The notes: a model not told the origin generated them from the letters alone. 63,856 bases of DNA from a bacterium (GCA_021824605.1 JAKAKH010000007.1:1-63856); one strand, 5' to 3'. Positions 13,521-25,401 are shown, counted from the first letter of the stretch. Translations and numbers: made by a program.

Positions 13521-14946
13521 GCTGAATGAACTGACGATAGCGGAAGCGGCCCGCGCGCTGCGCGCGCGGGAGTTCACCGTGCAGGCGTTATGGGACGCGT
13601 GCGCGGCCGCGGCGGCCGCGCGCAATCCGGAACTAAACGCATTTCTTGAGATTTTCGATGCCGATGATGCGGCAATTGCCGCGGCACAAAAGCGTATCGA
13701 TACTGATGGCTCCGCCGCGCCGCTCCTCTGCGGCATCCCGCTCGCGATGAAGGACAATATCCTGATAGAAGGAAAGATTGCGAGCGCCGGTTCCAGGATG
13801 CTTGAGAATTATCGCGCGACGTACGACGCGACTGTCGTGAAGAAGCTGAAAGAAGCAGGAGCACTTTTCCTCGGACGCACCAATATGGACGAGTTCGCGA
13901 TGGGTTCTTCGACCGAACATTCCGCATACGGTCCGACAAAAAATCCGCATGATACGCATCGCGTGCCCGGCGGCTCCTCCGGCGGCTCCGCCGCCGCCGT
14001 TGCCGCGCACCTCGCGATTGCGGCGCTCGGCTCAGACACCGGCGGCTCCATTCGCCAGCCGGCCGCGCACACCGGACTCGTGGGATTGAAGCCGACCTAC
14101 GGCGCTGTCTCGCGTTCGGGACTCATAGCGATGGGTTCTTCGCTCGATCAGATAGGCCCTCTCGCAAAGACAGTGGAGGATGCGCGCCTCCTCTACGAGG
14201 CTATCGCTGGGCGCGATCCGCTTGACGCGACGACGATTCCCGCCGGTCTCTACCCGGCACGTAGCATCCCCGAGAAATTCCGCATCGGCGTACCGCGGCA
14301 CCTTCTGGAAAAAGGGGTCGATGCCGACCTGCGCGCCGCGTTTGATGCGTCACTGGAGCGATTGAAAGACGCCGGACATACGCTTATCGACATAGAGTTG
14401 CCGATGAGCGCCTACGCGCTCGCGGCGTATTACGTCCTCATGCCTGCAGAAGTCTCGACCAATCTCGCGCGGCTCGACGGCATCCGTTACGGGCACGCGG
14501 TGCGCGGCGAGACACTGCTCGACGACTATCTTCTTTCGCGTACAAGCGGATTCGGGAAAGAAACGCTTCGCCGCATTTTGCTCGGCACCTTCGTGCTGTC
14601 ATCCGGCTACATCGACGCGTATTACTACAAAGCGGACGCCGCGCGCCGCGTGTTGCGTCGCGAATACGAAAAAGCGTTTGGAAAAGCCGACATCGTCGCT
14701 TTCCCGACGACGCCATCGCCGGCATTCGCTCTCGGTGAAAAGAGTGATCCGCTTTCGATGTATCTCGAAGACATTTTCACAGCGACTGCAAACCTGACCG
14801 GCATGCCGGCGCTTTCCGTTCCGATGGGTTTTGTGGAGCGTGCAGGGAAACAGCTGCCTATCGGTATGCATTTCACCGCGCCAAATCAGGCAGAGGACAC
14901 GCTTTTCGTCCTCGGCACCGCAGTGGAGAAAGCGCGCGGCGCCTAG
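13513..14946 (+). CDS. gatA: Asp/Glu-tRNA(Asn/Gln) amidotransferase subunit A
   Basis: 477 aa with the amidase signature GGSSGGSAAAVA and a Ser-cisSer-Lys context. Confidence 0.93.
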   Translation: MTKLNELTIAEAARALRAREFTVQALWDACAAAAAARNPELNAFLEIFDADDAAIAAAQKRIDTDGSAAPLLCGIPLAMKDNILIEGKIASAGSRMLENYRATYDATVVKKLKEAGALFLGRTNMDEFAMGSSTEHSAYGPTKNPHDTHRVPGGSSGGSAAAVAAHLAIAALGSDTGGSIRQPAAHTGLVGLKPTYGAVSRSGLIAMGSSLDQIGPLAKTVEDARLLYEAIAGRDPLDATTIPAGLYPARSIPEKFRIGVPRHLLEKGVDADLRAAFDASLERLKDAGHTLIDIELPMSAYALAAYYVLMPAEVSTNLARLDGIRYGHAVRGETLLDDYLLSRTSGFGKETLRRILLGTFVLSSGYIDAYYYKADAARRVLRREYEKAFGKADIVAFPTTPSPAFALGEKSDPLSMYLEDIFTATANLTGMPALSVPMGFVERAGKQLPIGMHFTAPNQAEDTLFVLGTAVEKARGA

Positions 14947-14970
14947 CGCATCTCGTCTATACTGAAAGCG

Positions 14971-15555
14971 ATGCCCACCACTCCCGCTACGCAGCTAAAC
15001 GTCGAGTATTTTTTCCGCCTCCTGTACGATCTTTTCTATGGTACGCATGCGCCGGCAAACTATTCGGTGTTTCAGACTTTTCTCGCACACCTCTGGCTCT
15101 GGATCATCATCGTCGGCTACGCACTCTCGGTCATAGGACTTTTCGTCATTGTGTACGCCATGATACGTCTTTTCGAGCTTCGCGAGCGTGAAGAGGAACA
15201 GTACGGCACACTGCTTCTTGCACCGGAGACGGAGGGCGGCATGAACCGTCGCTGGCTGCACATCGAGTCGCTCGGGAATGGCGCAAACGCAAGCGCATGG
15301 CGCGAGGCGATTATCGAAGCCGATATCATGCTTGACGACATGCTCACCGAACAGGGGTATGCGGGCGAGGGCGTCGGCGAGAAGCTTAAAGCAGTCGAAC
15401 CGGCAGATTTCAATACGCTCCAGGACGCATGGGAGGCGCACAAAGTGCGCAATCAGATAGCGCATGAAGGTTCCGCTTTTGCTCTTTCCGAAACCCTCGC
15501 CCGCCGCACCCTCGCCCGCTACGAATCCGTCTTTCGCGAGTTCAAAATCATCTAA
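14971..15555 (+). CDS. hypothetical membrane protein
   Basis: 194 aa with one or two TM helices followed by a helical soluble domain. I recognise no family. Confidence 0.5.
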   Translation: MPTTPATQLNVEYFFRLLYDLFYGTHAPANYSVFQTFLAHLWLWIIIVGYALSVIGLFVIVYAMIRLFELREREEEQYGTLLLAPETEGGMNRRWLHIESLGNGANASAWREAIIEADIMLDDMLTEQGYAGEGVGEKLKAVEPADFNTLQDAWEAHKVRNQIAHEGSAFALSETLARRTLARYESVFREFKII

Positions 15556-15561
15556 AAAAAG

Positions 15562-15589
15562 TTGCAAGACGTTCCAAAATCGCTATAAT
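15562..15589 (+). promoter_or_regulatory. sigma-70-type promoter of tRNA-Met (TTGCAA-16 nt-TATAAT)
   Basis: TTGCAA lies at 15562-15567 and TATAAT at 15584-15589. The tRNA 5' end is 10 nt downstream. Confidence 0.75.
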
Positions 15590-15598
15590 GTGGTGCAT

Positions 15599-15669
15599 AG
15601 CGGGGTAGAGGAGAGGTACCTCGGGAGGCTCATAACCTCCAGACGCCGGTTCGATTCCGGCCCCCGCAA
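15599..15669 (+). tRNA. tRNA-Met (CAT), initiator-like acceptor end, CCA not encoded
   Basis: I folded it by hand as a cloverleaf. The acceptor is AGCGGGG/CCCCGCA with an A1-A72 mismatch. The D arm is GAGG-AGAGGTA-CCTC, the anticodon arm is GGAGG-CTCATAA-CCTCC, the variable region is 4 nt, and the T arm is GCCGG-TTCGATT-CCGGC. Confidence 0.85.
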
Positions 15670-15958
15670 CACGGTTGTGACGCCAGGAACTAGTACCGAC
15701 AGGCATCAAAGTTAGTACTGTACCGCTCAGGGTGTTCACCAGAAAAAGCTCGCAAATACAATGCGAGCTTTTTCTGTTACGCAGCAAGTTCAACATATTT
15801 CCAGTTCGATTCCTTTTCTCGTATTCGGTGATGTTTTGTGTCGCAATCACATCAAAATCAACTCGATTCTGAGCAGGGGCGCTGGAATCGAACCGACAAA
15901 AGCCACTGAATACACCAGTTTCTGATTTCTCACCCCCTCGAGGGGGGCGAGAAATCAG
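15661..15958 (+). repeat. copy 1 of a roughly 300-bp direct repeat that starts inside the 3' end of tRNA-Met
   Basis: It aligns with 18624-18915 (offset 2963). The first roughly 65 nt are near-identical. A terminator follows at the same position, then a roughly 180-nt segment at roughly 75-80 percent identity by eye. Confidence 0.8.
15741..15776. terminator. bidirectional rho-independent terminator (A-tract, 9-bp stem, T-tract)
   Basis: AGAAAAAGCTCGCA aatacaa TGCGAGCTTTTTCT. Confidence 0.8.
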
Positions 15959-15964
15959 TTCATG

Positions 15965-15973
15965 TGGTAGAAT
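15965..15973 (+). promoter_or_regulatory. possible extended -10 element (TGgTAGAAT) upstream of ppa
   Basis: This is a sequence match only. No convincing -35 is present, and it lies 90 nt upstream of the ppa start. Confidence 0.3.
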
Positions 15974-16063
15974 TTCTCTATCTCAATAGGCGATGAGGCT
16001 CGCCGTATAACCGCTTGAAAGAGCTGATAGCTTCTACGGATTATCAGTTTTTATCTATTCCGT

Positions 16064-16570
16064 ATGAAGCCATTGTCAGCAGGAAAGAATCCACCGCACG
16101 AGATCGATGTGTACATCGAGATACCGCAGGGCTCGTCGGTGAAATATGAGCTCGACAAGGAGCTCGACGTCGTCCGTGTGGATCGCTTCCTACACACCTC
16201 GATGCAGTACCCGTTCAACTACGGCTTCATACCCGCGACGCACGCCGAGGACGGCGACCCGGCCGATGTCCTGCTCCTGTCCTCATTGCCAATAGTTCCT
16301 GGGGTCATCGTGAGCGCCCGTCCGATAGGCGTGCTTGAAATGGAGGACGAAGCCGGACCGGACAACAAGATACTCGCCGTACCGCTCGAGAAGATCGACC
16401 CTGACCTCGCACACATCAAAGACGCTCAGGATCTGAGCGAGCATGTGAAGCGGCGCATCAAACACTTCTTCGAGAGCTATAAGCAGCTTGAGAATGGGAA
16501 GTGGGTCAAGACCGGTGAGTTCCTGGGTAAGATGGAGGCTGAAGCAGAGATAAGGAAGTCGCTCGGCTGA
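16064..16570 (+). CDS. ppa: inorganic pyrophosphatase, family I
   Basis: 168 aa with a YELDKE...DRFL...YPFNYGFIPATHAEDGDPADVLLL signature region. Confidence 0.92.
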   Translation: MKPLSAGKNPPHEIDVYIEIPQGSSVKYELDKELDVVRVDRFLHTSMQYPFNYGFIPATHAEDGDPADVLLLSSLPIVPGVIVSARPIGVLEMEDEAGPDNKILAVPLEKIDPDLAHIKDAQDLSEHVKRRIKHFFESYKQLENGKWVKTGEFLGKMEAEAEIRKSLG

Positions 16571-16571
16571 C

Positions 16572-16778
16572 GTGGCGGGACTCTTTCTTATCATCGGTCT
16601 CGTCTTCGCGCCGCTTGCGGGAGCAATCGCATTCCTCATCACGTTCCAGGAATACCGCAAACATCGCTTTTCGGGTAAACCGCTCTATCAGGCTGCCCTT
16701 AGAGCCGGGCTTTTGACATTCGCGTTCTTCCTCCTGCTCGCGCTCGCACTTGGCTATGCACTTCCCTTCATCGTATGA
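16572..16778 (+). CDS. small two-TM membrane protein
   Basis: 68 aa with a GTG start 2 nt after the ppa stop and two hydrophobic helices. No family is recognised. Confidence 0.45.
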   Translation: MAGLFLIIGLVFAPLAGAIAFLITFQEYRKHRFSGKPLYQAALRAGLLTFAFFLLLALALGYALPFIV

Positions 16779-16900
16779 GAAGAGTTGGCGTAAACGGCAC
16801 CCGATCCGGGAATTCTTACTCACGCTTATTGTCTGCGCCGTGCTTCTGTTCCCGCGTATTCCGCCACGTTGACGCATAAGCTATAATTCACTGAAACGAT

Positions 16901-17353
16901 ATGGATACGCTCGCAATCTTTGGTGCAAAATATCTCTACCTATTCGCCGTAGCGATTGCCGCCGGATATTTTCTTCTGTCAGACAGGAAGAAGGAAATAG
17001 CGATCTTCTCCATTCTTGATTTGGCGGCCGTATACGTAACCGGGCTCTTAGGGAGCGCTTTGTACTACAATCCGCGCCCGTTCGTTTCAGAACACATAAC
17101 GCCTCTCATATCCCATGCTGCCGACAACGGATTTCCTTCCGACCACACGCTTCTTGTCGCGGCGCTCGCGAGCATCTTGTATTGTTATAACCGCGTCTTG
17201 GGCATTGTCGTCTTTGCTATCGCGATCCTGGTCGGTGCATCCCGGGTGTTTGCGGGCATCCACCACTCGATCGATATCATCGGTTCTCTCGGTATTGCCA
17301 TCGCGGTGACGCTCGTCGTGTATAGAATGGCCAGAAAACGCTTTTTTGCCTGA
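16901..17353 (+). CDS. PAP2-family lipid phosphatase (undecaprenyl-diphosphate/phosphatidate phosphatase-like)
   Basis: The PAP2 motifs PSDHT and SRVFAGIHHSIDI are present in a polytopic 150-aa protein. Confidence 0.82.
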   Translation: MDTLAIFGAKYLYLFAVAIAAGYFLLSDRKKEIAIFSILDLAAVYVTGLLGSALYYNPRPFVSEHITPLISHAADNGFPSDHTLLVAALASILYCYNRVLGIVVFAIAILVGASRVFAGIHHSIDIIGSLGIAIAVTLVVYRMARKRFFA

Positions 17354-17357
17354 GATC

Positions 17358-18545
17358 ATGGAACAAGCGGAAAAGAAACGTCCGGGCAATGTGTTCTATA
17401 TCGGACTCCTGAGCTTCTTCGGCGGCATAAGCCAGGACATGTTCGTGCCGATCCTGCCGCTGTATCTCGCGAACGTTCTCGGTTTTGACAAGGCGTTCAT
17501 CGGCATCTCCGAAGGGCTCGTTACAAGCGGCGTCGCAATCTTCCGTTTCGTAGCCGGGTTCCTCTCCGACCGATTCGGCAAGAAGAAACCCATCGTTTTC
17601 ATTGGATACTTCTTCTCGCTTGTCGCAAGACCTCTCCTGGCGCTCGCGTCGATCGGGGGCGCCATTCTCGGTCTGCGCCTCCTCGACGGCATCGGCAAGG
17701 GGATGAAGGATTCGCCCAAGGATGCGCTCATTGCCGACTCTACCGACTCGCACGGGCGCGGCAAAGGATTCGGGATCGCCCGCGCGCTCGATACGCTCGG
17801 GTCTGTCGCGGGGCCTCTCATTCTCTTCGGACTCCTCTACCTCCTCCAAGGGAATGCACTCAAGTATCACATCATCCTCTTTCTTTGCGCGATCCCGCTC
17901 CTCGTGACGCTCGCGGTTCTCGTCTTTAAAGTCAGAGAGGTACCGACACAAACAAAGGAGCTCGACGCCCCGGCTGCCTTCACTCTCCCACGGCGGTTCT
18001 ACGTGTTCCTTGGCATCGTGCTGTTGTTCAGTATCGGCAACTCCTCCGACGCCTTCCTCATCTTGCGTGCGCAGAATCTTGGTGTCGTGCTTCTCGTCAT
18101 TCCGCTCGTCTATGCGCTCTTCAATTTCGTGTACGCGAGCGCGTCCATACCGCTCGGAAGCCTTTCCGACCGCATCGGGCGTGAGAAAGTTATCCTGCTC
18201 GGATGGGCCGCTTACGCGCTTGCGTACCTCGGATTCGCAAAGGCAGACGCCGCGTGGCAGGTCTGGGCACTCTTCGCGTTCTATGGCCTCTACTATGCGA
18301 CGACCGAGGGTGTCGCCAAGGCGTTTGTTGCCGATATGGTGTCGCCAGAGCGGCGCGGGCGCGCTTATGGAATCTATAACACCGCTGTCGGGCTCATCGC
18401 GCTCCCCGCGAGCTACATTGCCGGGCTTCTCTGGGACCGCATAAGTCCGGCCGCCCCGTTCTATTTCGGCGCTTCGTTTGCGATCGCCGCGTGTGTCGCA
18501 CTAGTATTGTTTTTATGGCTCTCGCCAAAAAGTCACGCTGAATGA
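17358..18545 (+). CDS. MFS transporter
   Basis: About 395 aa with 12 predicted TM segments and an MFS loop motif (GFLSDRFGKKKP, and again LSDRIGREK). Confidence 0.85.
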   Translation: MEQAEKKRPGNVFYIGLLSFFGGISQDMFVPILPLYLANVLGFDKAFIGISEGLVTSGVAIFRFVAGFLSDRFGKKKPIVFIGYFFSLVARPLLALASIGGAILGLRLLDGIGKGMKDSPKDALIADSTDSHGRGKGFGIARALDTLGSVAGPLILFGLLYLLQGNALKYHIILFLCAIPLLVTLAVLVFKVREVPTQTKELDAPAAFTLPRRFYVFLGIVLLFSIGNSSDAFLILRAQNLGVVLLVIPLVYALFNFVYASASIPLGSLSDRIGREKVILLGWAAYALAYLGFAKADAAWQVWALFAFYGLYYATTEGVAKAFVADMVSPERRGRAYGIYNTAVGLIALPASYIAGLLWDRISPAAPFYFGASFAIAACVALVLFLWLSPKSHAE

Positions 18546-18581
18546 CGGGTGCCGGAATCGAACCGAAGTCGTAAAGAAAAT

Positions 18582-18632
18582 AGCGAGGGATTATGCGGCG
18601 AACGGAGGTGAAGTCAATTCCTGCCCCCGCAA
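18582..18632 (+). pseudogene. degenerate, internally shortened copy of the tRNA-Met gene
   Basis: ATAGCGAGGG...GTCAATTCCTGCCCCCGCAA aligns with the 5' and 3' ends of the tRNA at 15599-15669. Only about 50 nt remain and it cannot form a cloverleaf. Confidence 0.5.
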
Positions 18633-18915
18633 CACGGTTGTGACGCCAGGAACCAGTACCGACAGGCATCAAAATTGGTACTGTTCCGGCGCCCCTAAAA
18701 GACCAAAAACCCGCGTATTTCCATACGCGGGTTTTTGGGTTATGTAGCAAATACAACAAATAGCCAGTTCGATTCCAACTCTCGTATTCGAAGCAGTTCT
18801 GTGTCGCAATCACACGAAAATCAATCCGATTTTGAGCATGGGCGCGGGAATCGAACCGGCAGGGGCCAATGAATACGCCGGTTCTATATTCCTGCCCTCG
18901 TAAGGGAGCAGGAAG
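18624..18915 (+). repeat. copy 2 of the tRNA-linked roughly 300-bp direct repeat
   Basis: See 15661-15958. Confidence 0.8.
18703..18739. terminator. bidirectional rho-independent terminator (different sequence, same position as in copy 1)
   Basis: CCAAAAACCCGCGTA tttcca TACGCGGGTTTTTGG. Confidence 0.8.
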
Positions 18916-18974: not shown

Positions 18975-19002
18975 TTGATTATTTATATTTGTGTGATACA
19001 AT
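18975..19002 (+). promoter_or_regulatory. promoter of the ATP-grasp/precursor operon (TTGATT-16 nt-TACAAT with TGn extension)
   Basis: TTGATT lies at 18975-18980, TGa at 18994-18996 and TACAAT at 18997-19002. The RBS AAAGGAGA follows at 19023-19030. Confidence 0.6.
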
Positions 19003-19037
19003 TTCACGCGGAAGTTAAATTGAAAGGAGAATTGATC

Positions 19038-20033
19038 ATGAACGAGTGGATTGCAATTGTGTCGTATTCGACAGACCTGCATGCCGAGCATGTTTTGAAG
19101 AGCTTGGTGAGTCAGGGCGCTAAGCCCGTCTTACTGGACCTTGGCGAATATCCTGAGGGAATTCAGATATCGGTCGGGCTAAATAGCGAAGCTCATACAA
19201 GCGTTTCTTTCGAGGTTCGAGGTGAAATCTTGCATGGAGAAGATCTTAAAAGCGTGTGGTGGCGGAGGCCTCTCGGCGCTTATCAGGATGAGTGCGTGGA
19301 TCTTCAGCGTCGATATATTGCTAGCGAGGGAGAAGCTATTACAAGGTCCTTATCGGATCTCTTACCTGCAGCTCACTGGATCTCTGATCCCGACGCAACG
19401 CGAGTTGCCGGCCGTAAGCCAAAGCAACTCGCGCTCGCCGCTAATCTTGGATTCCGTGTTCCTGATTCACTGGTCAGTAATTCGGCTATTGCGATTGAGA
19501 AATTTCTCGATCGCAATGGTGATCGTCCGATTATCTTGAAGGCTGTCAATAGCGCCTTCATTCGTCTCAATCCGAAAGCTCGGGACGATGAAGGTGTGAA
19601 TCGGGTGGTGTATACCAAGCTCGTGCAGCCAGATTTCATCCGTCTGCATCTCTCAAATATTGCCGTATGCCCGTTTATCGTGCAGGAGGCGATATTCAAG
19701 ACTGAAGATATTCGAGTAACCGTTGTCGGAGACGAAGTTTTCGCGATGGGTATCCGGACAAAAATGAAAATCGGCGATGAGCTCGTGGTCGACTGGCGAA
19801 AGATGGATGCAGACCGCGATTATTTCCGGCACGAATTACCGGACGCTGTCGCGGATCTTTGTAGGAAGATAACACAGGAGCTTGGTCTTAAGTTCGGGTG
19901 CATCGACCTGGCCTATTCCGAAGATAATGGATACACGTTCTTCGAAATTAATCCGCAAGGGCAATGGCTTACGTCTGAAGTTCTGCTTAAGTTTCCGATT
20001 ACGGCCGCATTGACCGCACTCTTGCTTAGTTGA
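19038..20033 (+). CDS. ATP-grasp peptide ligase of the microviridin MdnB/MdnC (graspetide macrocyclase) type
   Basis: 331 aa from the ATG at 19038, which has an RBS 7 nt upstream. Landmarks match MdnC-type ligases as I recall them: SVWWRR, KPKQLALAANLGFRVPDS, CPFIVQEAIFKTEDIRVTVVG, DWRK, FGCIDL and FFEINPQGQW. Confidence 0.8.
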   Translation: MNEWIAIVSYSTDLHAEHVLKSLVSQGAKPVLLDLGEYPEGIQISVGLNSEAHTSVSFEVRGEILHGEDLKSVWWRRPLGAYQDECVDLQRRYIASEGEAITRSLSDLLPAAHWISDPDATRVAGRKPKQLALAANLGFRVPDSLVSNSAIAIEKFLDRNGDRPIILKAVNSAFIRLNPKARDDEGVNRVVYTKLVQPDFIRLHLSNIAVCPFIVQEAIFKTEDIRVTVVGDEVFAMGIRTKMKIGDELVVDWRKMDADRDYFRHELPDAVADLCRKITQELGLKFGCIDLAYSEDNGYTFFEINPQGQWLTSEVLLKFPITAALTALLLS

Positions 20034-20082
20034 AGTTTCTGGCCGTATACGGTATAAGACATGGAGAAAGGAGGTGATCAAA

Positions 20083-20238
20083 ATGCAAGACGCAAAGGAA
20101 AAGGCAAATACTACCGTACCACTGACGTTCCTCGTCGCTCAGCCGATTGAGACTGAAATCAAGGCTGCACAGGCGTATGGTTATTCGATGGAAATCGATA
20201 CCAAGCAGCCCAACGGCGACGGATCCGATACTGTCTAG
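20083..20238 (+). CDS. 51-aa candidate graspetide precursor peptide (not in the ORF track)
   Basis: The RBS AAAGGAGG (20067-20074) lies 8 nt before the ATG. The peptide is MQDAKEKANTTVPLTFLVAQPIETEIKAAQAYGYSMEIDTKQPNGDGSDTV. A terminator follows 15 nt after the TAG. Confidence 0.7.
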   Translation: MQDAKEKANTTVPLTFLVAQPIETEIKAAQAYGYSMEIDTKQPNGDGSDTV

Positions 20239-20253
20239 TTCGGGTCTTTACAC

Positions 20254-20295
20254 ACAGACGATGCGTTCCAACGCGTCGTCTGTTCTTTTTATTTT
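20254..20295 (+). terminator. rho-independent terminator of the ATP-grasp/precursor operon
   Basis: ACAGACGATGCGT tcca ACGCGTCGTCTGT followed by TCTTTTTATTTT. Confidence 0.8.
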
Positions 20296-20316
20296 GGTGC
20301 CGTACAATATTAATAC

Positions 20317-20814
20317 ATGCTGAATTCTGAATTATCTGAGCGTCTTTTACAGTTGCTCGCAGAGGACCAGGATGGCCTGAGACAATATAGAGCAGGAACG
20401 CTCTCTCTTGGAGAGATAAACCGTGCTATTCGTGTGCGTACAGAGGAGGCACGCAAGATTTTTAAAATCGAATTTCCGAAAAAGCGACTTGTCGGTGAGG
20501 ATGCTTATCGGGCATTTATTGCGCTTGTTCTGCATTCCGATGATCCTGAATTTATGGATCAGGTTGCGAATACTATTCGTGCATCCGAGACGGAAGATGC
20601 TGATAAATCTCACGCAGCATTTATTATCGATAAATTGCTGGTGCGAGAAGGGAAACCACAGCGGTACGGAACACAATACAGTGCAATAAACGAGGATGGT
20701 TCTGTAGCATTCGTGCCTTTCGAAGATCCAAAAGAAATCGACTCGCGACGAGCAGAGATTGGACTATCATCCATGAAAGAATACGAGGAAACGATTCGAA
20801 AGATTAGGGTTTAA
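20317..20814 (+). CDS. hypothetical protein
   Basis: 165 aa, helical, containing GKPQRYGTQ. No family is confidently recognised. Confidence 0.5.
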   Translation: MLNSELSERLLQLLAEDQDGLRQYRAGTLSLGEINRAIRVRTEEARKIFKIEFPKKRLVGEDAYRAFIALVLHSDDPEFMDQVANTIRASETEDADKSHAAFIIDKLLVREGKPQRYGTQYSAINEDGSVAFVPFEDPKEIDSRRAEIGLSSMKEYEETIRKIRV

Positions 20815-20861
20815 TCTGACGTAGGAATCAGATTCGATTCGAGAAGAAATAACGAAGCAAT

Positions 20862-21203
20862 ATGCAGCACCAGATGAAATTATCGACAGAACCTTTCAAC
20901 CAGATTGCATCTGGCGCGAAAGTTATCGAGTCCCGCCTCTACGACGAGAAACGCCAGCAGATTGCGCTCGGTGACGAGATAGAATTCAGCGAGAATGATC
21001 ATCCTGAAAACAAGGTATACACGAAGGTCATCGAGCTTCTTCGCTACCAATCGTTTAAAGACCTTTTTGTCGATCACGAGCCAGCACTCTTCGGCGGCGA
21101 GAGTCGTGAATTCCTCCTCAATCAGATTAAACAGTTCTACTCGGACGAAGACGAGCAGAAGTACGGTGTGGTGGGTGTGCGAATCGAAAAGGTGAGTGTC
21201 TAG
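20862..21203 (+). CDS. ASCH-domain protein
   Basis: 113 aa. PFNQIASGAKVIESRLYDEKRQQIALGDEIEF is typical of the ASCH (PUA-like) fold. Confidence 0.7.
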   Translation: MQHQMKLSTEPFNQIASGAKVIESRLYDEKRQQIALGDEIEFSENDHPENKVYTKVIELLRYQSFKDLFVDHEPALFGGESREFLLNQIKQFYSDEDEQKYGVVGVRIEKVSV

Positions 21204-21209
21204 CCTAAC

Positions 21210-21255
21210 GACAAACACAGAAGCCGCGACGTACGTCGCGGCTTCTGTGTTTGTC
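21210..21255. terminator. long perfect hairpin terminator
   Basis: GACAAACACAGAAGCCGCGACGT/ACGTCGCGGCTTCTGTGTTTGTC form palindromic arms. Confidence 0.7.
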
Positions 21256-21271
21256 CAGTATCATTGCGCGT

Positions 21272-21511
21272 ATGAAAGTCTACGCCGAAGTTGGGGTTGG
21301 GAATGACACGTTCCTCTCGACTGAATACGAAGAAGGGGATCGGGAATATCGGGTCCCAAGCTTCGTGAAGCCACCACATGTAACAGAATATTATGTCCGT
21401 ATTTGGATACGAAAGACGGTCTATATATTCTCGACCAATGAGGGTTTCAAGAAGATCTCAAAGGATAAAAACAGATTCAAGTTACTTTTTGGAGTTGGCG
21501 GTGTGCGTTAG
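21272..21511 (+). CDS. hypothetical small protein
   Basis: 79 aa from the ATG at 21272. The track start at 21251 lies inside the terminator stem. Confidence 0.4.
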   Translation: MKVYAEVGVGNDTFLSTEYEEGDREYRVPSFVKPPHVTEYYVRIWIRKTVYIFSTNEGFKKISKDKNRFKLLFGVGGVR

Positions 21512-21520
21512 TATGACACT

Positions 21521-22165
21521 ATGACCAAAAATATCTTTCTCCTCAGTATGATGAGCCCGCTCGACGAAGGGTTGCGCGAGACGCTTGCTCGAGAAATTCT
21601 CAAGCGCGGCATGAAGGTTGCGTACATATCCTCGAGTCCGCAGAGTGGTGACCGGCCATACTACCAGTCGACCATTGCCGACTATACGGCAATCAGTCCC
21701 GACATTCGTGTCGACTATTTCGATCTCTCAGATGCTTTCACAGACGAGATGCTCGCTACGCTTCCTTCCTATGCCGCCATCTACCTCTCGGGAGGGAACA
21801 CATTTACTTTTATGGATAGTGCACGAAAGCGCGGACTTCAGACAATTCTTGAACAGCACCTAGCAAACGACGGGGTGCTCATCGGCGCAAGTGCGGGGAG
21901 CATCATGTGCACGCCCTCAATTGAACTTGCGAAGTTTGGTGACGAGAACGAAGTCGGCATGACCGACTTCTCAGGATTCGGATTTATCGACTTCGAGTTC
22001 CATCCGCACTTTAATGATGAATCGAGGGAGCGCGAGCAACTAGCAGAATACCAGCGCACACACGCACAGGAAATTTATACATGCAAGGATGGGGCAGGGA
22101 TACATGTCTCTGACCCAGGAATCGAAGTGTTTGGTGAGGTTTCGAAGCTTGTGTCGATTGAATGA
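21521..22165 (+). CDS. peptidase S51 family (dipeptidase E-like)
   Basis: 214 aa with IYLSGGNTF and the nucleophile context IGASAGS. Confidence 0.75.
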   Translation: MTKNIFLLSMMSPLDEGLRETLAREILKRGMKVAYISSSPQSGDRPYYQSTIADYTAISPDIRVDYFDLSDAFTDEMLATLPSYAAIYLSGGNTFTFMDSARKRGLQTILEQHLANDGVLIGASAGSIMCTPSIELAKFGDENEVGMTDFSGFGFIDFEFHPHFNDESREREQLAEYQRTHAQEIYTCKDGAGIHVSDPGIEVFGEVSKLVSIE

Positions 22166-22303
22166 ATAGGTGAACAGGAATATCTCAATAAGATCATAAG
22201 GTATTGTCGAATACTGATGGCGTGTTACTATCTCGCATGGACATCGGTGGTGCTTGTCCAGGATTCTCCCGTACAACGCCAGTGTCCTTCCTAGGAGTTT
22301 GTT

Positions 22304-22528
22304 GTGGGTAAAAAATCGCAAAAACCTGTATCGAGTCACAATCCATTCGCGGCCGAGGGTTTCAAGCTCTCTTCCTTTACGCATAAATGTTGTTGTGTTG
22401 CCGTGCGTGTTGGGGAGATGGTGGAAGTTCGGGACACGAAAAACCCCGAAGGTCCAACCCTTTCTTTCAACAAGGACGAATGGAAGGCTTTCGTCAGCGG
22501 CATCAAAAATAACGAATTCGACGTCTGA
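22304..22528 (+). CDS. DUF397-domain protein
   Basis: 74 aa with a GTG start and AGGAG 7 nt upstream. The pattern SSF..KCCCVAV....VEVRDTKNPEGPTLSF..DEW.AF is DUF397-like. Confidence 0.65.
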   Translation: MGKKSQKPVSSHNPFAAEGFKLSSFTHKCCCVAVRVGEMVEVRDTKNPEGPTLSFNKDEWKAFVSGIKNNEFDV

Positions 22529-22537
22529 AGGATTCAT

Positions 22538-22575
22538 GGAGGGGACGAATATGTTCCCTCTATTTTATTTTTATT
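22538..22575 (+). terminator. rho-independent terminator
   Basis: GGAGGGGAC gaatat GTTCCCTCT followed by ATTTTATTTTTATT. Confidence 0.7.
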
Positions 22576-22619
22576 CGATCTAGACAATTGCCGCGCAGCA
22601 ATCTGTTATTATCTTCTCA

Positions 22620-23210
22620 ATGTCTTCCCGTAAAACATTTTTCATCATTCCCGGCTTTAAACAAAAAGCGGGTAATAAATCGTTTGTGTGGCTCGGAAAT
22701 CTCTTAAAAGACAGAGGGTTTGAGGTAGTAAAAGTATCTATATGTTGGGAACGTAGAACCATGAAAGAATATGTCGAAGATTTCATCGAAGTGTATAAGA
22801 AGTATCAGTCTGGGGAAAATTATATTTTGGGATTTTCATATGGAGCGGTTATCGCTTTATTGTCGGCTAATGCACTGAAACCAAAGAAAATATATTTGTG
22901 TTCCCTAAGCCCAGACTTCAAAGAAGATGTTTCGGCAATGACGCCCTGGCTAAAGAAATATGTTGGCAAAAGACGTATCGCGTACAGTTTAAAGACAAGC
23001 GGGAGAGAGATCGCGAAGAATCTCAGGATCTCTTCCGTGATTTTTTATGGTGAAGCAGAGGCCAGGGGTTATCCGCAAATTAAAGTTCGATGTGAAGAAA
23101 CGGCTAATCTTGCTGCACGATCAAAGCTCGTGGTGGTAGAAAAGTCGCCTCATCAAATAGACTTCCCAACTTATAAAACGGCACTCATTAAAGAGCTGAA
23201 AACTATATAG
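22620..23210 (+). CDS. alpha/beta-hydrolase-fold protein
   Basis: 196 aa with the nucleophile elbow GFSYG and an FIIPGF start typical of small serine hydrolases. Confidence 0.6.
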   Translation: MSSRKTFFIIPGFKQKAGNKSFVWLGNLLKDRGFEVVKVSICWERRTMKEYVEDFIEVYKKYQSGENYILGFSYGAVIALLSANALKPKKIYLCSLSPDFKEDVSAMTPWLKKYVGKRRIAYSLKTSGREIAKNLRISSVIFYGEAEARGYPQIKVRCEETANLAARSKLVVVEKSPHQIDFPTYKTALIKELKTI

Positions 23211-23270
23211 AAGCCTCTCTTCTTTGCGATTTCTTGTGAGACGGTCGAACGTATTTGCTAGAATACTCAC

Positions 23271-23855
23271 ATGACCGACGAACAATTGATAACCAGAGCA
23301 AAATCCCTACAGGATGAGGCGCGGCGGATTCTAGAGGAACTCGACCTACTCGCGGTTATCGGGGCAATTTCCGAACCAGAAGTCGTCGGGAGCGTGAAGA
23401 ACGGGCTCATGATTATGCCGGACATTGATATTCATGCATGGATGGAAGAGCCAGATCTTAGTGCCGTCGCAAACCTTTTTCCGACACTCATGAAGATGCC
23501 GACTATCCAGATGGTGCATTTCAATAACTATCGCGAGCTACGAAGAGATTTCCGAAAAGATCGCATCAATTTTCCACATGCGTACTATGTCGGAATGCGT
23601 ACGACACAACCCTCTGGCGAGTGGAAGATTGATATGTGGTTTGGAAAGCGTGGGGAAGTGGGCGACTACGATGCGACCGAACTCGATACGATGACCGACG
23701 AACAACGTCTCGTCATTCTGAGACTCAAGGAAATATGGAAAGACGGTAAGGGGTATCGAGATGGTGTCCTCAGTACTGATTTCTACAAAGCGGTCATGCG
23801 ACATAACGTGAAAGATGAAGAAGGATTTATAGAATACTTGAGAACGAAAGAATAA
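23271..23855 (+). CDS. nucleotidyltransferase-fold (Pol-beta superfamily) protein
   Basis: GS-x10-DIDIH (GSVKNGLMIMPDIDIH) fits the GS...DxD NTase motif. It is 194 aa. Confidence 0.55.
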   Translation: MTDEQLITRAKSLQDEARRILEELDLLAVIGAISEPEVVGSVKNGLMIMPDIDIHAWMEEPDLSAVANLFPTLMKMPTIQMVHFNNYRELRRDFRKDRINFPHAYYVGMRTTQPSGEWKIDMWFGKRGEVGDYDATELDTMTDEQRLVILRLKEIWKDGKGYRDGVLSTDFYKAVMRHNVKDEEGFIEYLRTKE

Positions 23856-23858
23856 CGT

Positions 23859-24359
23859 ATGGAAATAAAATCAACATTGAAAAGCCGACTGTCGGGGATA
23901 GTGCCGGTGGTATATCGAGACATCGAATCGATTGATGAGCTTGGTGACCGAGTGGTCCACGGCGTCCATGCGTATTGTTTTGTAGGCGATAAGCTCGTCA
24001 TCGTGTATTCAGAAGCAAAGGGATATTGGACACCGCCGGGTGGGGGAGTAGAGCCGGGCGAGACGATTGAAGAGGCAACTATACGTGAAGTGCTCGAAGA
24101 AACAAATATGCGCGTGCTCAAACAGCGCATCATCGGCTATCAAGAAGTCTCTGAACCACATCGACTTACGGTGCAGGTGCGTTCGGTCTGTATCGTCGAA
24201 CCGATTGGACCGTTCGTTGCAGACGCTGACTCCAGTGATGGCGAGGGTGTGACAGAGATTAAACTCATCGACCCAAAAAACATCAAACAGTACTTTGACT
24301 GGGGCGAAGTTGGCGAGCATATCCTCGCCCGGGCCTTGTCTATCAAAGGAGGGCTTTGA
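23859..24359 (+). CDS. NUDIX hydrolase
   Basis: The Nudix box is GGGVEPGETIEEATIREVLEETN. Confidence 0.85.
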   Translation: MEIKSTLKSRLSGIVPVVYRDIESIDELGDRVVHGVHAYCFVGDKLVIVYSEAKGYWTPPGGGVEPGETIEEATIREVLEETNMRVLKQRIIGYQEVSEPHRLTVQVRSVCIVEPIGPFVADADSSDGEGVTEIKLIDPKNIKQYFDWGEVGEHILARALSIKGGL

Positions 24360-24371
24360 ACGCTGTTGATT

Positions 24372-24704
24372 ATGCAAGAAGTCGCACAAAAGATTCGGAG
24401 TGATTTTGAAGCCGGTGTGATTGATCAGGAATTACTTGTTGAGCTTTATAAGGGGTATAAAGATGTTGGCGATACGGTACAGTTTGTAACCAAAGCAAGA
24501 GAGATATTTCCGAATGGGAATTGCGGCCTCGCATCTCTCTATCTTAAGGAGAAGCTCGGAGGGGAAGTAGTTCAGGGGAAGTATGGAAAACATAATCATA
24601 CGTTTCTGTTTGTCGATGGAACGGTTATTGATATCACCGCAGATCAATTCGGAGGTCCTAAAGTTTATATAGGACCTCTTCAATTTCCCTGGGAGCTTGC
24701 TTAA
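24372..24704 (+). CDS. hypothetical protein
   Basis: 110 aa from the ATG at 24372. No family is recognised. Confidence 0.45.
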   Translation: MQEVAQKIRSDFEAGVIDQELLVELYKGYKDVGDTVQFVTKAREIFPNGNCGLASLYLKEKLGGEVVQGKYGKHNHTFLFVDGTVIDITADQFGGPKVYIGPLQFPWELA

Positions 24705-24709
24705 TAAAA

Positions 24710-24727
24710 GCCGCCCCTTGGGGCGGC
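24710..24727. terminator. GC hairpin between convergent genes (the T-tract is on the minus strand)
   Basis: GCCGCCCC tt GGGGCGGC preceded by AAAA. It serves the minus-strand GNAT gene best. Confidence 0.6.
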
Positions 24728-24732
24728 AAGCA

Positions 24733-25401
24733 TTAGAAGATGCTCGTTTCTTTTTCGAGTTGTGCATGTTGTTCGTCTGTAAGTCTCGGTAGACTTTTTG
24801 TTTTTTGGTAGTTCGCCCAAATTGGTTCCCAATCCTCCCGAAAGATCTCGAGGCTAATACTGTCGACGAAGTTTCCGTTGTCGAAGTGGTGAGATTTATG
24901 TCGACCAACTTGCTTGAAACCGCAGGCCAGCAAGTGACCCCAGCTATTCCCATTGAATGCTTTTACGCGCGAGCAGACCTTACGGAATCCGCGTACACGA
25001 AATGCTTCGTATAGGAGCAGTAGCTTCGCTTCGGTACCGTAGCCCTTGCCGAAGCAGGTTGGGTCGATAATGAGACTCCCACTTTCGCAGTATCCGCCTG
25101 GCCACGTTAGGTCGTGTAGACCAGTATGGCCGATATAGCGGTATCCAGTTACGATGCCCGCCGAATCTTTCTGGTGAAGAAGGATGGCAAAGATGAGATT
25201 ACCTCTCTTGCTGATATTTTCGTACCATGCGAATTCGGTTTCGAGTGTTACTGGTGGTTGCAATACAACCCCTCGCGTCACTTCTGGGTTATTCACTCCC
25301 GACATGCAGAGGGGGATGTAGTCCCGTTGCATTGCGCCGAGAGACAAGTACAGCAAGCCATGGCGAGTTGGATAATGAGTACCCACAACTATTCCTCTCA
25401 A
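24733..25401 (-). CDS. GNAT-family N-acetyltransferase (RimJ/RimL-like)
   Basis: 222 aa with the acetyl-CoA motif region FGKGYGTEAKLLLLYEAF. Confidence 0.75.
   Translation of the reverse strand: MRGIVVGTHYPTRHGLLYLSLGAMQRDYIPLCMSGVNNPEVTRGVVLQPPVTLETEFAWYENISKRGNLIFAILLHQKDSAGIVTGYRYIGHTGLHDLTWPGGYCESGSLIIDPTCFGKGYGTEAKLLLLYEAFRVRGFRKVCSRVKAFNGNSWGHLLACGFKQVGRHKSHHFDNGNFVDSISLEIFREDWEPIWANYQKTKSLPRLTDEQHAQLEKETSIF

Follow-up and report, generated by a model that had tools for sequence, protein, structure and literature searches.

Two copies of one module stand in the same orientation in a 63,856-nt stretch of bacterial DNA (the window), the first beginning inside a tRNA-Met gene and the second following a pyrophosphatase-phosphatase-transporter cassette, and the question is how this arrangement arose. 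An earlier note had read the pair as scars of site-specific integration at a tRNA gene, with segmental duplication as the alternative. The genomes of CPR bacteria are tiny, most of these bacteria are uncultured, and their routes of gene gain are little known. From the comparisons described below, we propose that the repeat copies are probably attachment-site junctions of an integrative element family located just 3' of tRNA-Met in Patescibacteria (CPR), and that the DNA between them is a recombinase-less cassette.

Anatomy of the repeat pair at tRNA-Met

The direct repeats span 15651-15920 and 18614-18883, with the same order of sub-elements and an offset of 2963, so the ~300-bp repeat described earlier is real. 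It does begin inside the 3' end of the tRNA, as had been claimed; however, its true start is not 15661 but about 10 nt earlier, in the T-loop. Block 1 (75 nt, 15651-15725 vs 18614-18688) corresponds to the stretch that the earlier note called almost identical and has 92% identity, while block 2 (152 nt, 15769-15920 vs 18732-18883), the conserved segment reported after the terminators, has 80%. The total homology of both copies, D1 included, is ~270 nt. A perfect, bidirectional terminator-type hairpin lies between the blocks in both copies, at the same position and of unrelated sequence, again as noted before, and a second hairpin pair with unrelated sequences stands beyond block 2 (the downstream one located by eye, at ~18885-18915). 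The features are as follows.

15562-15589, + strand: promoter-like site TTGCAA-16-TATAAT before the tRNA (consensus scan, 10/12 matches; a consensus match only)
15599-15669 (/70), + strand: tRNA-Met(CAT), putative left (B) half of the attachment site (ARAGORN; Rfam tRNA, 58.9 bits)
15670-15671, + strand: CA dinucleotide, tRNA positions 74-75, putative crossover point (L062-group breakpoint, half-site combinations, CA...CA inserts)
15669-15690, + strand: core copy 1, ACACGGTTGTGACGCCAGGAAC; from 15672 a putative element-side (P') half-site (22-mer count; 53 loci)
15691-15739, + strand: trailer hairpin region, GTAC-rich, predicted to pair back onto the core (folds of 62 trailers)
15740-15776, no strand: bidirectional terminator-type hairpin, copy 1 (perfect 15-nt arms)
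15777-15921, no strand: D1 segment copy 1, 145 nt (80% identity to copy 2)
~15801-15813 and 15884-15895: inverted repeat inside D1 copy 1, CCAGTTCGATTCC / GGAATCGAACCG
15922-15958, no strand: hairpin 2, copy 1, conserved in position but not in sequence (inverted repeat and alignment)
15980-16043, + strand: fluoride riboswitch ahead of the cassette genes (Rfam RF01734, 48.6 bits vs gathering score 34)
16064-18545, + strand: whole cassette cargo (gene calls with Pfam assignments on identical contigs)
16064-16570, + strand: inorganic pyrophosphatase, ppa (gene call/Pfam on identical contigs)
16572-16778, + strand: 68-aa ORF (gene call on identical contigs)
16901-17353, + strand: PAP2 phosphatase (gene call/Pfam on identical contigs)
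17358-18545, + strand: MFS transporter (gene call/Pfam on identical contigs)
18546-18634, + strand: putative element-side left (P) arm, a tRNA-like 5'/3' mimic ending ...TCAATTCCTGCCCCCGCAACA (arm recurs in other loci)
18547-18566: inverted T-arm-like motif GGGTGCCGGAATCGAACCGA inside the P arm (repeat search)
18632-18653, + strand: core copy 2, which with the P arm would form an attP-like internal junction (22-mer match; L001 comparison)
18703-18738, no strand: bidirectional terminator-type hairpin, copy 2 (inverted repeat search)
18740-18884, no strand: D1 segment copy 2 (L001 carries another D1 and other cargo there)
18885-18915, no strand: hairpin 2, copy 2 (read from the sequence)
15672-18634, + strand: putative mobile unit of 2,963 nt, comprising core, trailer, terminator, D1, riboswitch-ppa-PAP2-MFS and P arm (identity to L001)

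The tRNA-Met has unpaired A1 and A72, the discriminator A73 at 15669 and no encoded CCA (stems read from the sequence), and it looks like an initiator-type tRNA. The 22-mer core occurs twice in the window (0.00 expected), and all 6 occurrences of GGAATCGAAC fall within the two repeat copies (0.25 in shuffles). Since both copies were also found in independent assemblies and in Logan contigs, the repeat is no assembly artefact. In the window, nothing but the tRNA and the fluoride riboswitch reached the Rfam threshold, and the trailer and D1 matched no curated covariance model; permissive Rfam matches on the equivalent module of L001 were terminator or tRNA look-alikes. The GC content falls from 0.535 at 18-19 kb to 0.43-0.49 at 19-25 kb, in line with the drop previously seen at the right-hand copy.

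The stretch 18582-18632 had been taken for the remains of a decayed second tRNA. Neither ARAGORN nor Rfam calls a tRNA there, and the T-arm-like fragment reported directly after the MFS stop is present. However, in L023, L013 and L049 almost the same arm stands between unrelated genes and the core, the P-arm architecture also stands behind unrelated genes in L010 and L046, a related two-motif arm occurs in 8 further loci, and the T-loop/stem variant of the P arm, TCAATTCCTGC, is unlike the resident tRNA-Met. The pseudogene reading is not supported; judged by its recurrence, the tRNA-like stretch 18546-18634 is a conserved arm borne by the element. By the same token, tRNA-like fragments near tRNA genes should be annotated with caution, as they may be site arms of elements and not decaying copies.

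Site variants and probable cassette exchange downstream of tRNA-Met

The exact 22-nt core was found in 53 GTDB loci, and all title-named taxa among them are Patescibacteria; no exact core was found in viral contigs. About 26 loci retain the order ligA-gatC-gatA-hyp-tRNA-Met-core, and the DNA beyond is hypervariable. In the loci examined, all copies stand in arrays downstream of tRNA-Met. Ten contigs carry 2-4 exact cores in direct orientation, imperfect copies raise the numbers, and L045 and L073 have 3-5 sites each; such arrays often surround gene cassettes of 1.3-3.3 kb. In the window the ppa unit is followed by the graspetide region, and in L001 the array consists of the ppa unit, a UDG unit and a recombinase element.

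The window and L001 do not differ at a single position from 15631 to 18675, yet their flanking ligA and gatCA are just 71-75% identical; the first difference after the cassette is at 18676, and right of the core each contig has different cargo. Four assemblies (L062, L064, L066 and L067) are 99-100% identical to window 14464-15671 and unrelated after 15671, where they continue with AGCAAGCAAAAGCCGCC..., a terminator and then unrelated genes, with no core or D1 within 6 kb. The putative insertion is flanked by direct repeats containing the tRNA 3' end, and the content polymorphism has a sharp edge at the repeat (15671/15672 in the L062 group; 15631-18675 in L001). These comparisons agree with the earlier proposals of att-type boundaries at a tRNA gene, of serial events and of an integrase-less element, and they differ from what a dispersed repeat family had been expected to give, namely identical flanks everywhere and no variant sites: the module is missing from L062, and the cargo to the right is different in L001. 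Metagenome assemblies cannot phase flanks over the 3-kb identical cassette, and some left/right combinations (L002 vs the window) are possibly chimeric. Logan contigs gave two joints, both ambiguous, one of which (low depth, 15671 to 18631 plus 4 nt) is indistinguishable from another strain; the assembled contigs showed neither an excision product nor a circular junction.

As sequence patterns, the left and right site halves around CA (15670-15671) occur in all four combinations. B-CA-B' (attB-like) is found in L062; B-CA-P' (attL) in window copy 1; P-CA-P' (attP-like) in window copy 2, L042, L053, L059 and L060; and P-CA-B' (attR) in L073 at 1700-1640 (type-c arm, CA, then AGCAA and a terminator), where a recombinase element of 12.4 kb has its far end. 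Small inserts are bordered by CA...CA. From these junctions we infer that the crossover takes place at the CA, tRNA positions 74-75, and that the core from 15672 serves as a recombinase half-site. The tRNA end and the reverse-complemented core show only modest dyad symmetry (z 2.9, p ~0.01; other arms z -0.5 to 2.4). Because a crossover at this point would lie 3' of the mature tRNA, the mature tRNA would be left intact, the element need not restore it, and no part of it would be displaced.

D1 has copies of 75-88% identity in at least 22 other loci, in every inspected case after a core and a terminator, and is absent beside the recombinase genes. Window copy 1 is 87.6% identical to the D1 of L047 and 87.0% to that of L054, compared with 79.9% to window copy 2, and the trailer and terminator of window copy 2 match the tRNA-linked trailer of L029. 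Judged by the comparison with L001, D1 copy 2 is part of the next unit (the graspetide region) and lies outside the ppa cassette. The D1 stem is conserved, with little covariation. Pairing of the invariant core with variable downstream strands is predicted in 51/55 trailers, trailer hairpin stability is modest and unremarkable (median z -1), and the tRNA and trailer are present on metatranscriptome contigs.

It appears that copy 1 would be an attL-type junction, made of the tRNA half and an element-side core, and copy 2 an internal attP-like junction, made of the tRNA-mimicking arm of the ppa cassette and the core of the next unit. Incoming DNA would bring a new trailer, hairpin and terminator. 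The 2,963-nt unit, without its own recombinase, would most likely owe its capture and movement to the large serine recombinase of related arrays, acting in trans.

A candidate recombinase and the competing explanations

Although tRNA genes are classic targets of tyrosine integrases, and tRNA gene ends are unusual ones for large serine recombinases, the enzyme associated with these sites appears to be a large serine recombinase. In L001 (14508-15842) and L073 it has the domains Resolvase (PF00239), Recombinase (PF07508) and Zn_ribbon_recom (PF13408). The gene was found in 7/53 core loci, each time convergent with the tRNA, and its identity between species is 80-86%; in L040, L078 and L079 the core adjoins the recombinase stop codon, which in L040 abuts the trailer terminator. 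In 80 metagenome loci with recombinase homologues, 55 tRNAs lie in 262 kb downstream and 5 in 307 kb upstream, and convergent tRNAs number 49 downstream vs 4 upstream. The closest homologues are located at tRNA-Met with the core, while more distant ones stand, in fixed orientation and with the same trailer architecture, 94-135 nt from Ser, Arg, Gly, Lys or Asp tRNAs, and the trailer type tracks the recombinase clade across different tRNAs. The cargo seen in two elements consists of restriction-modification or defence genes, and no phage genes were seen. From these arrangements we infer that the recombinase acts on the sites described here and can mobilise recombinase-less cassettes in trans. 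No recombinase is present between the repeats or elsewhere in the window, in agreement with the earlier report that it has no integrase.

Some points weigh against attachment-site junctions. Besides the missing recombinase, the failure to find excised or circular forms among assembled contigs and the modest dyad symmetry, the ~270-nt homology is longer than needed, serine-recombinase sites being far shorter, D1 is not found beside the recombinase genes, and the internal P-CA-P' junctions would require attP x attL recombination, a reaction that canonical large serine recombinases are not known to carry out. It is possible, though unlikely, that the module belongs to the host (a 3'-trailer RNA together with a gene for a small RNA, for example) and that cassettes are shuffled and transferred by homologous recombination between conserved blocks, with no site-specific step. 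The long homology with its 145-nt D1 conserved in so many loci, the predicted core pairing, the trailers on metatranscriptome contigs and the recombinase-free window would all fit such a module, and the end of the L001-identical tract inside conserved sequence, at 18675, is compatible with both models. Against it, a strain with an identical left flank has none of the module, so that the module is dispensable for the host; the tRNA-recombinase association is strong and one-sided (49 vs 4); the trailer type goes with the recombinase clade; all 2 x 2 half-site combinations meet precisely at CA, and one recombinase element ends in an attR; and the hairpins are unremarkable in stability, with little covariation in D1.

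We consider it improbable that another enzyme (a tyrosine integrase, a Xer-type recombinase or an HUH enzyme on hairpin DNA) uses the sites while the serine recombinase is frequent hotspot cargo. The tRNA target, the hairpin potential of the sites and the internal attP-like junctions, atypical of large serine recombinases, would speak for it; but no tyrosine integrase or recombinase was among the matches listed for 135 gene-cluster representatives from these loci, where single weak matches could be hidden, and the fixed orientation and distance (94-140 nt) of the homologues from the 3' ends of many tRNA types is the arrangement of an integrase beside its own site. A local tandem duplication of the tRNA-Met region, with subsequent decay of the second tRNA, is hardly credible: the shared orientation, order and constant offset would be expected from it, yet the copies have nearer relatives elsewhere (L047 and L054 in D1, L029 in trailer and terminator), the supposed decayed tRNA is conserved elsewhere behind unrelated genes, and L001 has the unit unchanged beside flanking genes of 71-75% identity.

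Building on the attachment-site reading, we tentatively suggest, as a possibility short of even odds, a cassette-accretion system of CPR bacteria driven by serine recombinases and anchored at tRNA 3' flanks. A recombinase subfamily for each tRNA type would cut just outside the mature tRNA; attP-like recombination would be permissive; recombinase-less cassettes would be captured, stacked and exchanged between species; and D1 and the T-arm-like motifs may be accessory binding sites. Each cassette would bear a tRNA-mimicking arm, a core and often D1, integron-like but with a different enzyme. A defined hotspot and a candidate enzyme would account for the movement of metabolic and defence cassettes between species-level lineages of one community, as with the fluoride-riboswitch-controlled pyrophosphatase-phosphatase-transporter unit in this mine-drainage community. 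If true, tRNA-end serine integrases with per-tRNA subfamilies may become site-specific tools, of interest because tRNA-end targets are conserved.

Relation to known integrative systems

In staphylococci, composite SCCmec/SCC islands form at the 3' end of rlmH/orfX with the large serine recombinases CcrAB/CcrC; many units have no recombinase of their own and are presumably mobilised in trans, and the cargo consists of adaptive genes. The system proposed here likewise combines a large serine recombinase, insertion just behind a conserved housekeeping gene that is kept active, and tandem units with adaptive cargo, many without a recombinase, parted by direct site repeats. The target here, however, is a tRNA 3' flank instead of a protein-coding gene, the hosts are CPR bacteria, and the repeated module, made up of core, hairpin, terminator and D1, is far longer and includes tRNA-mimicking arms. 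On its domains, the recombinase here is a large serine recombinase, not necessarily of the Ccr clade.

Genomic islands at tRNA genes and CIMEs (ICESt1/CIME accretion-mobilisation) share the tRNA hotspot, direct repeats with the tRNA 3' end, serial accretion and integrase-less att-flanked elements beside autonomous ones. Unlike these, the present system appears to use a serine recombinase in place of a tyrosine integrase, the putative crossover lies outside the mature tRNA, and the tRNA-like piece would be element-owned and not displaced host DNA. The large serine integrases of phages (phiC31, Bxb1, A118, TP901-1) have the same Resolvase, Recombinase and zinc ribbon domains, a gene beside its own site, and left and right halves exchanged at a dinucleotide in the centre. 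The targets of this family are mostly protein-coding genes or intergenic DNA, whereas here whole subfamilies are tied to one tRNA type each, no phage genes were seen, two elements having restriction-modification or defence cargo, and chromosomal attP-like junctions and arrays would be unexpected for strict attP x attB enzymes. Integron arrays are similar in having co-oriented cassettes of 1-5 genes, a terminal site with hairpin potential and a fixed platform. In contrast to integrons, no IntI was among the matches listed for the 135 gene-cluster representatives, there are no structure-only attC sites here, the 22-nt core is invariant, the platform is a tRNA, and the inspected cassettes bear their own promoter-like sites and terminators.

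Anatomy of the repeats around ppa-PAP2-MFS

The genes ppa, PAP2 and MFS are surrounded by two direct-repeat copies, copy 1 beginning at tRNA-Met, the sole tRNA of the window, and copy 2 lying 2963 nt further on.

Features of the two copies and of the unit between them
15599-15669/70, tRNA-Met(CAT) (ARAGORN, Rfam)
15651-15725 and 18614-18688, repeat block 1, 75 nt, 92% identity, offset 2963
15669-15690 and 18632-18653, the core, 22 nt following the tRNA end
15740-15776 (copy 1) and 18703-18738 (copy 2), perfect hairpin with T run between the blocks, stem sequences unrelated
15769-15920 and 18732-18883, repeat block 2, 152 nt, 80% identity, offset 2963
15777-15921 and 18740-18884, D1, a 145-nt segment
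15980-16043, fluoride riboswitch (48.6 bits)
16064-18545, ppa, a 68-aa ORF, PAP2 and MFS

Read from the sequence, the acceptor stem of tRNA-Met pairs 15600-15605 with 15662-15667, A1 (15599) and A72 (15668) are left unpaired, which is an initiator-like feature, and the discriminator A15669 is followed by CAC, the CCA not being encoded. The T-arm of this genuine copy reads GGTTCGATTCCGG. The 22-mer ACACGGTTGTGACGCCAGGAAC occurs twice in the window (0.00 expected), and all six occurrences of GGAATCGAAC fall within the two repeat copies (0.25 expected). After the core, the trailers (hairpin region and terminator) diverge, with T at 15691 in copy 1 versus C at 18654 and then ...AAAATTGG in copy 2, and a second hairpin after block 2 is again unrelated in sequence between the copies. 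Pairwise alignment and repeat search agreed on two blocks with unrelated hairpins, GC content is lower after copy 2, and neither ARAGORN nor Rfam recognised a tRNA at 18582-18632. The earlier note thus described the sequence correctly. Both copies were found in several independent assemblies.

Since the riboswitch lies ahead of ppa-PAP2-MFS, the mobile cassette has the look of a unit that responds to fluoride. Pyrophosphatases are well known for their sensitivity to fluoride, and the source community of the cassette is mine drainage. To the right, the low-GC region 18993-25400 encodes an MvdD-type ATP-grasp protein with a 51-aa ORF, DUF6624, ASCH, DUF3977, Peptidase_S51, NUDIX and YunG. Homologues in other orders, 77-90% identical in amino-acid sequence, lie in core-carrying loci L014, L043 and L045 (L numbers denote the related loci compared), in L045 directly 3' of the tRNA. 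No further site copy was found at the right end of this region. Cumulative GC skew over the window (1-63856) reaches its lowest value, -0.99, near 18-19 kb and then climbs. This switch near 15-19 kb occurs even though most genes called immediately to the left of the tRNA, and in the cassette and island on its right, are on the plus strand; it could mark a replication origin or a junction of native and imported DNA.

Transfer of the ppa unit and junctions at the tRNA

Contig L001, from the same study, has 71-75% nucleotide identity to the window over ligA, gatC, gatA and a 192-aa gene, yet 0 differences over window positions 15631-18675 (3,045 nt), the first one falling at 18676. Right of the cassette, L001 goes on with a D1 that differs from that of the window and with a UDG-like gene; after a third copy of the site come a large serine recombinase, at L001 14508-15842 on the minus strand, and a type I restriction-modification system. 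That an identical cassette sits in so divergent a genome indicates that the unit between the repeats moves. Conversely, L062, L064, L066 and L067, from four assemblies, are 99-100% identical to window 14464-15671 and then continue with AGCAAGCAAAAGCCGCCCGAAAGGGCGGC (terminator) and unrelated genes, with neither core nor D1 within 6 kb. This places the breakpoint two bases past the discriminator and means that the host can live without the whole module. The related-genome comparison proposed in the earlier note thus yielded a variant site that lacks the module.

Because short-read assembly cannot phase a 3-kb identical cassette, some left/right combinations (L002) may be chimeric. The depths of one run, 15-18 on the left flank, 23 on the cassette and 20 on the right flank, fit the arrangement of the window. 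Contigs over the tRNA and core (15616-15769 and 18542-18695; runs X1-X4) reach 10-20 times the cassette depth (434 versus 23 in X1), so many co-existing strains carry these sequences, a possible cause of assembly breaks and chimeras at the locus. Candidate excision joints in the assembled contigs searched are ambiguous.

Junction types around CA
attB-like, L062: ..GGTTCGATTCCGGCCCCCGCAA CA AGCAAGCAAAAGCC..
attL, window copy 1: left half as in L062 (..GGTTCGATTCCGGCCCCCGCAA), CA, CGGTTGTGACGCCAGGAAC..
attP-like, window copy 2: ..GAAGTCAATTCCTGCCCCCGCAA CA CGGTTGTGACGCC..
attP-like, L042, L053, L059 and L060: ..GTACAGTACCGNCNNGGGCAA CA CGGTTGTGACGCC..
attR, L073 1700-1640: ..GTACAGTACCGACACGGGCAA CA AGCAAATGAAAAC.. 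(terminator)

The attR of L073 lies at the far end of a 12.4-kb element that has the core, at L073 14053, as its start; the element encodes the recombinase along with three DNA methylases, an HNH nuclease and an ATPase. In L045, L061 and L073 the junction point holds short inserts with a CA on either side. To judge by these sequences, the two-by-two pattern of left and right halves is what recombination at a central dinucleotide would be predicted to give.

Core, arms and recombinase across Patescibacteria

With one genome per species, exact matches to the 22-mer core were found in 53 loci, and a profile search added imperfect copies. Loci with a taxon in the record title all belong to Patescibacteria (Kaiserbacteria, Paceibacterota, Minisyncoccia, Nomurabacteria and others), the remainder being unlabelled MAGs; viral contigs gave no exact match, and a phage origin was rejected on this ground. 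ORF clustering showed the order ligA-gatC-gatA-192-aa protein-tRNA-Met-core kept in about 26 genomes, and hypervariable DNA 3' of the core, with hundreds of singleton gene clusters, chiefly small metabolic and house-cleaning enzymes. Ten contigs hold 2-4 exact cores each, in direct orientation and 1.3-3.3 kb apart, and the genes between them run mostly in the direction of the tRNA.

Before the core comes a genuine tRNA or else an arm, of which there are a few conserved types that all end in ..CAACA. The arm of copy 2 consists of an inverted GGGTGCCGGAATCGAACC motif, a spacer of about 40 nt and ..GTGAAGTCAATTCCTGCCCCCGCAACA; it is almost unchanged in L023 and looser in L010, L013, L049 and L046, and the genes before it are unrelated. 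As it recurs behind unrelated genes, this arm is a conserved part of inserted units and not the decayed second tRNA copy that the earlier note had seen in it.

D1 is 75-88% identical in at least 22 loci, preceded by core and terminator in every case inspected. It contains a conserved inverted repeat (13 bp, 70 nt apart) of T-arm-like sequence with little covariation, and its invariant blocks read GTGATTGCGACAC and GAATACGAGA on the minus strand, where G-U cells outnumber C-A cells, a hint only. Neither D1 nor the trailer matched an Rfam family at threshold. A tRNA- or tmRNA-like gene on the D1 minus strand was rejected, as ARAGORN and Rfam were blank and its supposed T-stem contains 1-2 mismatches and shows no covariation. 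An ORF (cluster c0, antisense to the tRNA) would cross the terminator and the tRNA antisense strand, and was judged spurious by this reasoning only. D1 may serve as a regulatory element, provide accessory binding sites or give rise to an RNA. The trailer is of modest RNA stability (median z -1; 12/55 below -2), and the idea of an exceptionally stable hairpin was dropped. Metatranscriptome contigs span tRNA and trailer, with DNA carry-over possible and processing not visible from contigs. LOOT RNA (RF03000, 48-85 bits) lies a few kb from the arrays in four related loci (L055 1311-1429, L026 1331-1449, L053 6392-6510, L038 4011-4133).

A protein with Resolvase, Recombinase and Zn_ribbon_recom domains is encoded in 7 of the 53 core loci. 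Its gene and the tRNA always lie on opposite strands, the 3' end of the gene pointing to the tRNA, and in L040 the stop codon directly borders the terminator of the trailer. Between species the protein shows 80-86% identity, more than the housekeeping flanks do; the window has no homologue. In the converse direction, 80 metagenome loci with genes for homologues at 55-86% identity showed 55 tRNAs in 262 kb downstream of the recombinase gene, 49 of them convergent, versus 5 in 307 kb upstream. A convergent tRNA lay within 7 kb in 26 of the 33 loci having at least 3 kb of downstream sequence. All seven convergent downstream tRNA-Met genes were in loci of at least 56% identity (six of them 62-86%), three with the core. 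For homologues of 55-63% identity, the distance to the 3' end of the tRNA (Ser, Arg, Gly, Lys or Asp) is 94-135 nt, and their trailers run CA, a GT-rich block (e.g. AGCAGTCAG or ACGGTTGTGA), hairpins, GGTACC, terminator and recombinase stop. With the same layout at different tRNAs, the trailer type tracks the recombinase rather than the tRNA, and thus core and trailer are the recombinase-proximal element end. Loci at tRNA-Gln and tRNA-Ser have repeated trailer copies with cassettes between tRNA and recombinase. Both recombinase-bearing elements examined carry restriction-modification or defence genes: type I HsdM/HsdS and PIN in L001 (13775-20507), and N6/N4 and two C5 methylases, HNH and HATPase_c_3/Ymh in L073 (1674-14053). 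A tyrosine integrase was discarded as the enzyme, since none was listed among the representatives of 135 gene clusters or appeared in a regex screen.

Proposed insertion route, rivals and variation at tRNA-Met

We propose that a serine recombinase acts at these sites, which is the central step of the model. The enzyme would recognise the T-arm and acceptor end of the tRNA as the left half of attB and swap strands at the CA that corresponds to positions 74-75 of the tRNA, so leaving the mature tRNA unaltered. The element would supply a new trailer and a bidirectional terminator that in autonomous elements would also end the convergent recombinase gene. Newcomers would insert at the tRNA-proximal junction and shift older units outward, which would give arrays with attP-like internal junctions. 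The ppa unit (15672-18634), with both site halves and no enzyme, would rely on the recombinase of another unit; in L001 the identical cassette is two units away from the recombinase.

The model has weak points: large serine integrases of the canonical kind are not known to join attP to attL, the repeat homology exceeds the length needed, and D1 is missing beside recombinase genes. Homologous recombination between host-encoded conserved blocks would account for the long homology and the enzyme-free window, but it leaves unexplained the one-sided tRNA-recombinase linkage, the module-free strain and the junction combinatorics, and the trailer hairpin, of unremarkable stability, speaks for it only weakly; we consider it unlikely. 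Use of the sites by a different, unseen enzyme appears quite improbable. Local duplication of the tRNA-Met region, the segmental duplication of the earlier note, is hardly credible, because copy 1 of D1 is closer to L047 (87.6%) than to copy 2 (79.9%) and the arm of copy 2 is kept behind unrelated genes in other genomes.

Under the serine-recombinase model, the locus resembles in operation SCCmec-type composite islands and CIME accretion at tRNA genes, and differs from them in combining a serine recombinase with tRNA targets, in the probable crossover outside the mature tRNA and in the tRNA-mimicking arms. To our knowledge, serine integrases rarely use tRNA genes, and a limited literature search found no description of them at tRNA genes in CPR.

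The tRNA-Met of relatives varies in other ways. A group I intron of about 300 nt (Rfam RF00028, 41-59 bits) interrupts the anticodon loop between U33 and C34 in L001 (9266-9567), L002, L004, L012, L059 and, counted by eye, about 10 GTDB loci; the tRNA-Met of the window has none. In L028, L041 and L048 the insert seems to be another one, which ends ...GTAAAAG ahead of AACCTCC. Beside intron-bearing tRNA-Met genes lies an ORF of about 233-255 aa (L021 2203-2970, L036 3421-4122, L044 3636-4337), whose N-terminus is HTH-like and whose LGLGLYWGEG motif looks, by eye, like a LAGLIDADG homing endonuclease. Upstream of relatives' tRNA, and not in the window, stand 1-3 tandem units of about 76-138 nt (L045 18-260, L001 9097-9230, L016 109-187), each opening with nt 1-17 of the tRNA (AGCGGGGTAGAGGAGAG) and, in those read in L045, having a promoter-like site of its own.
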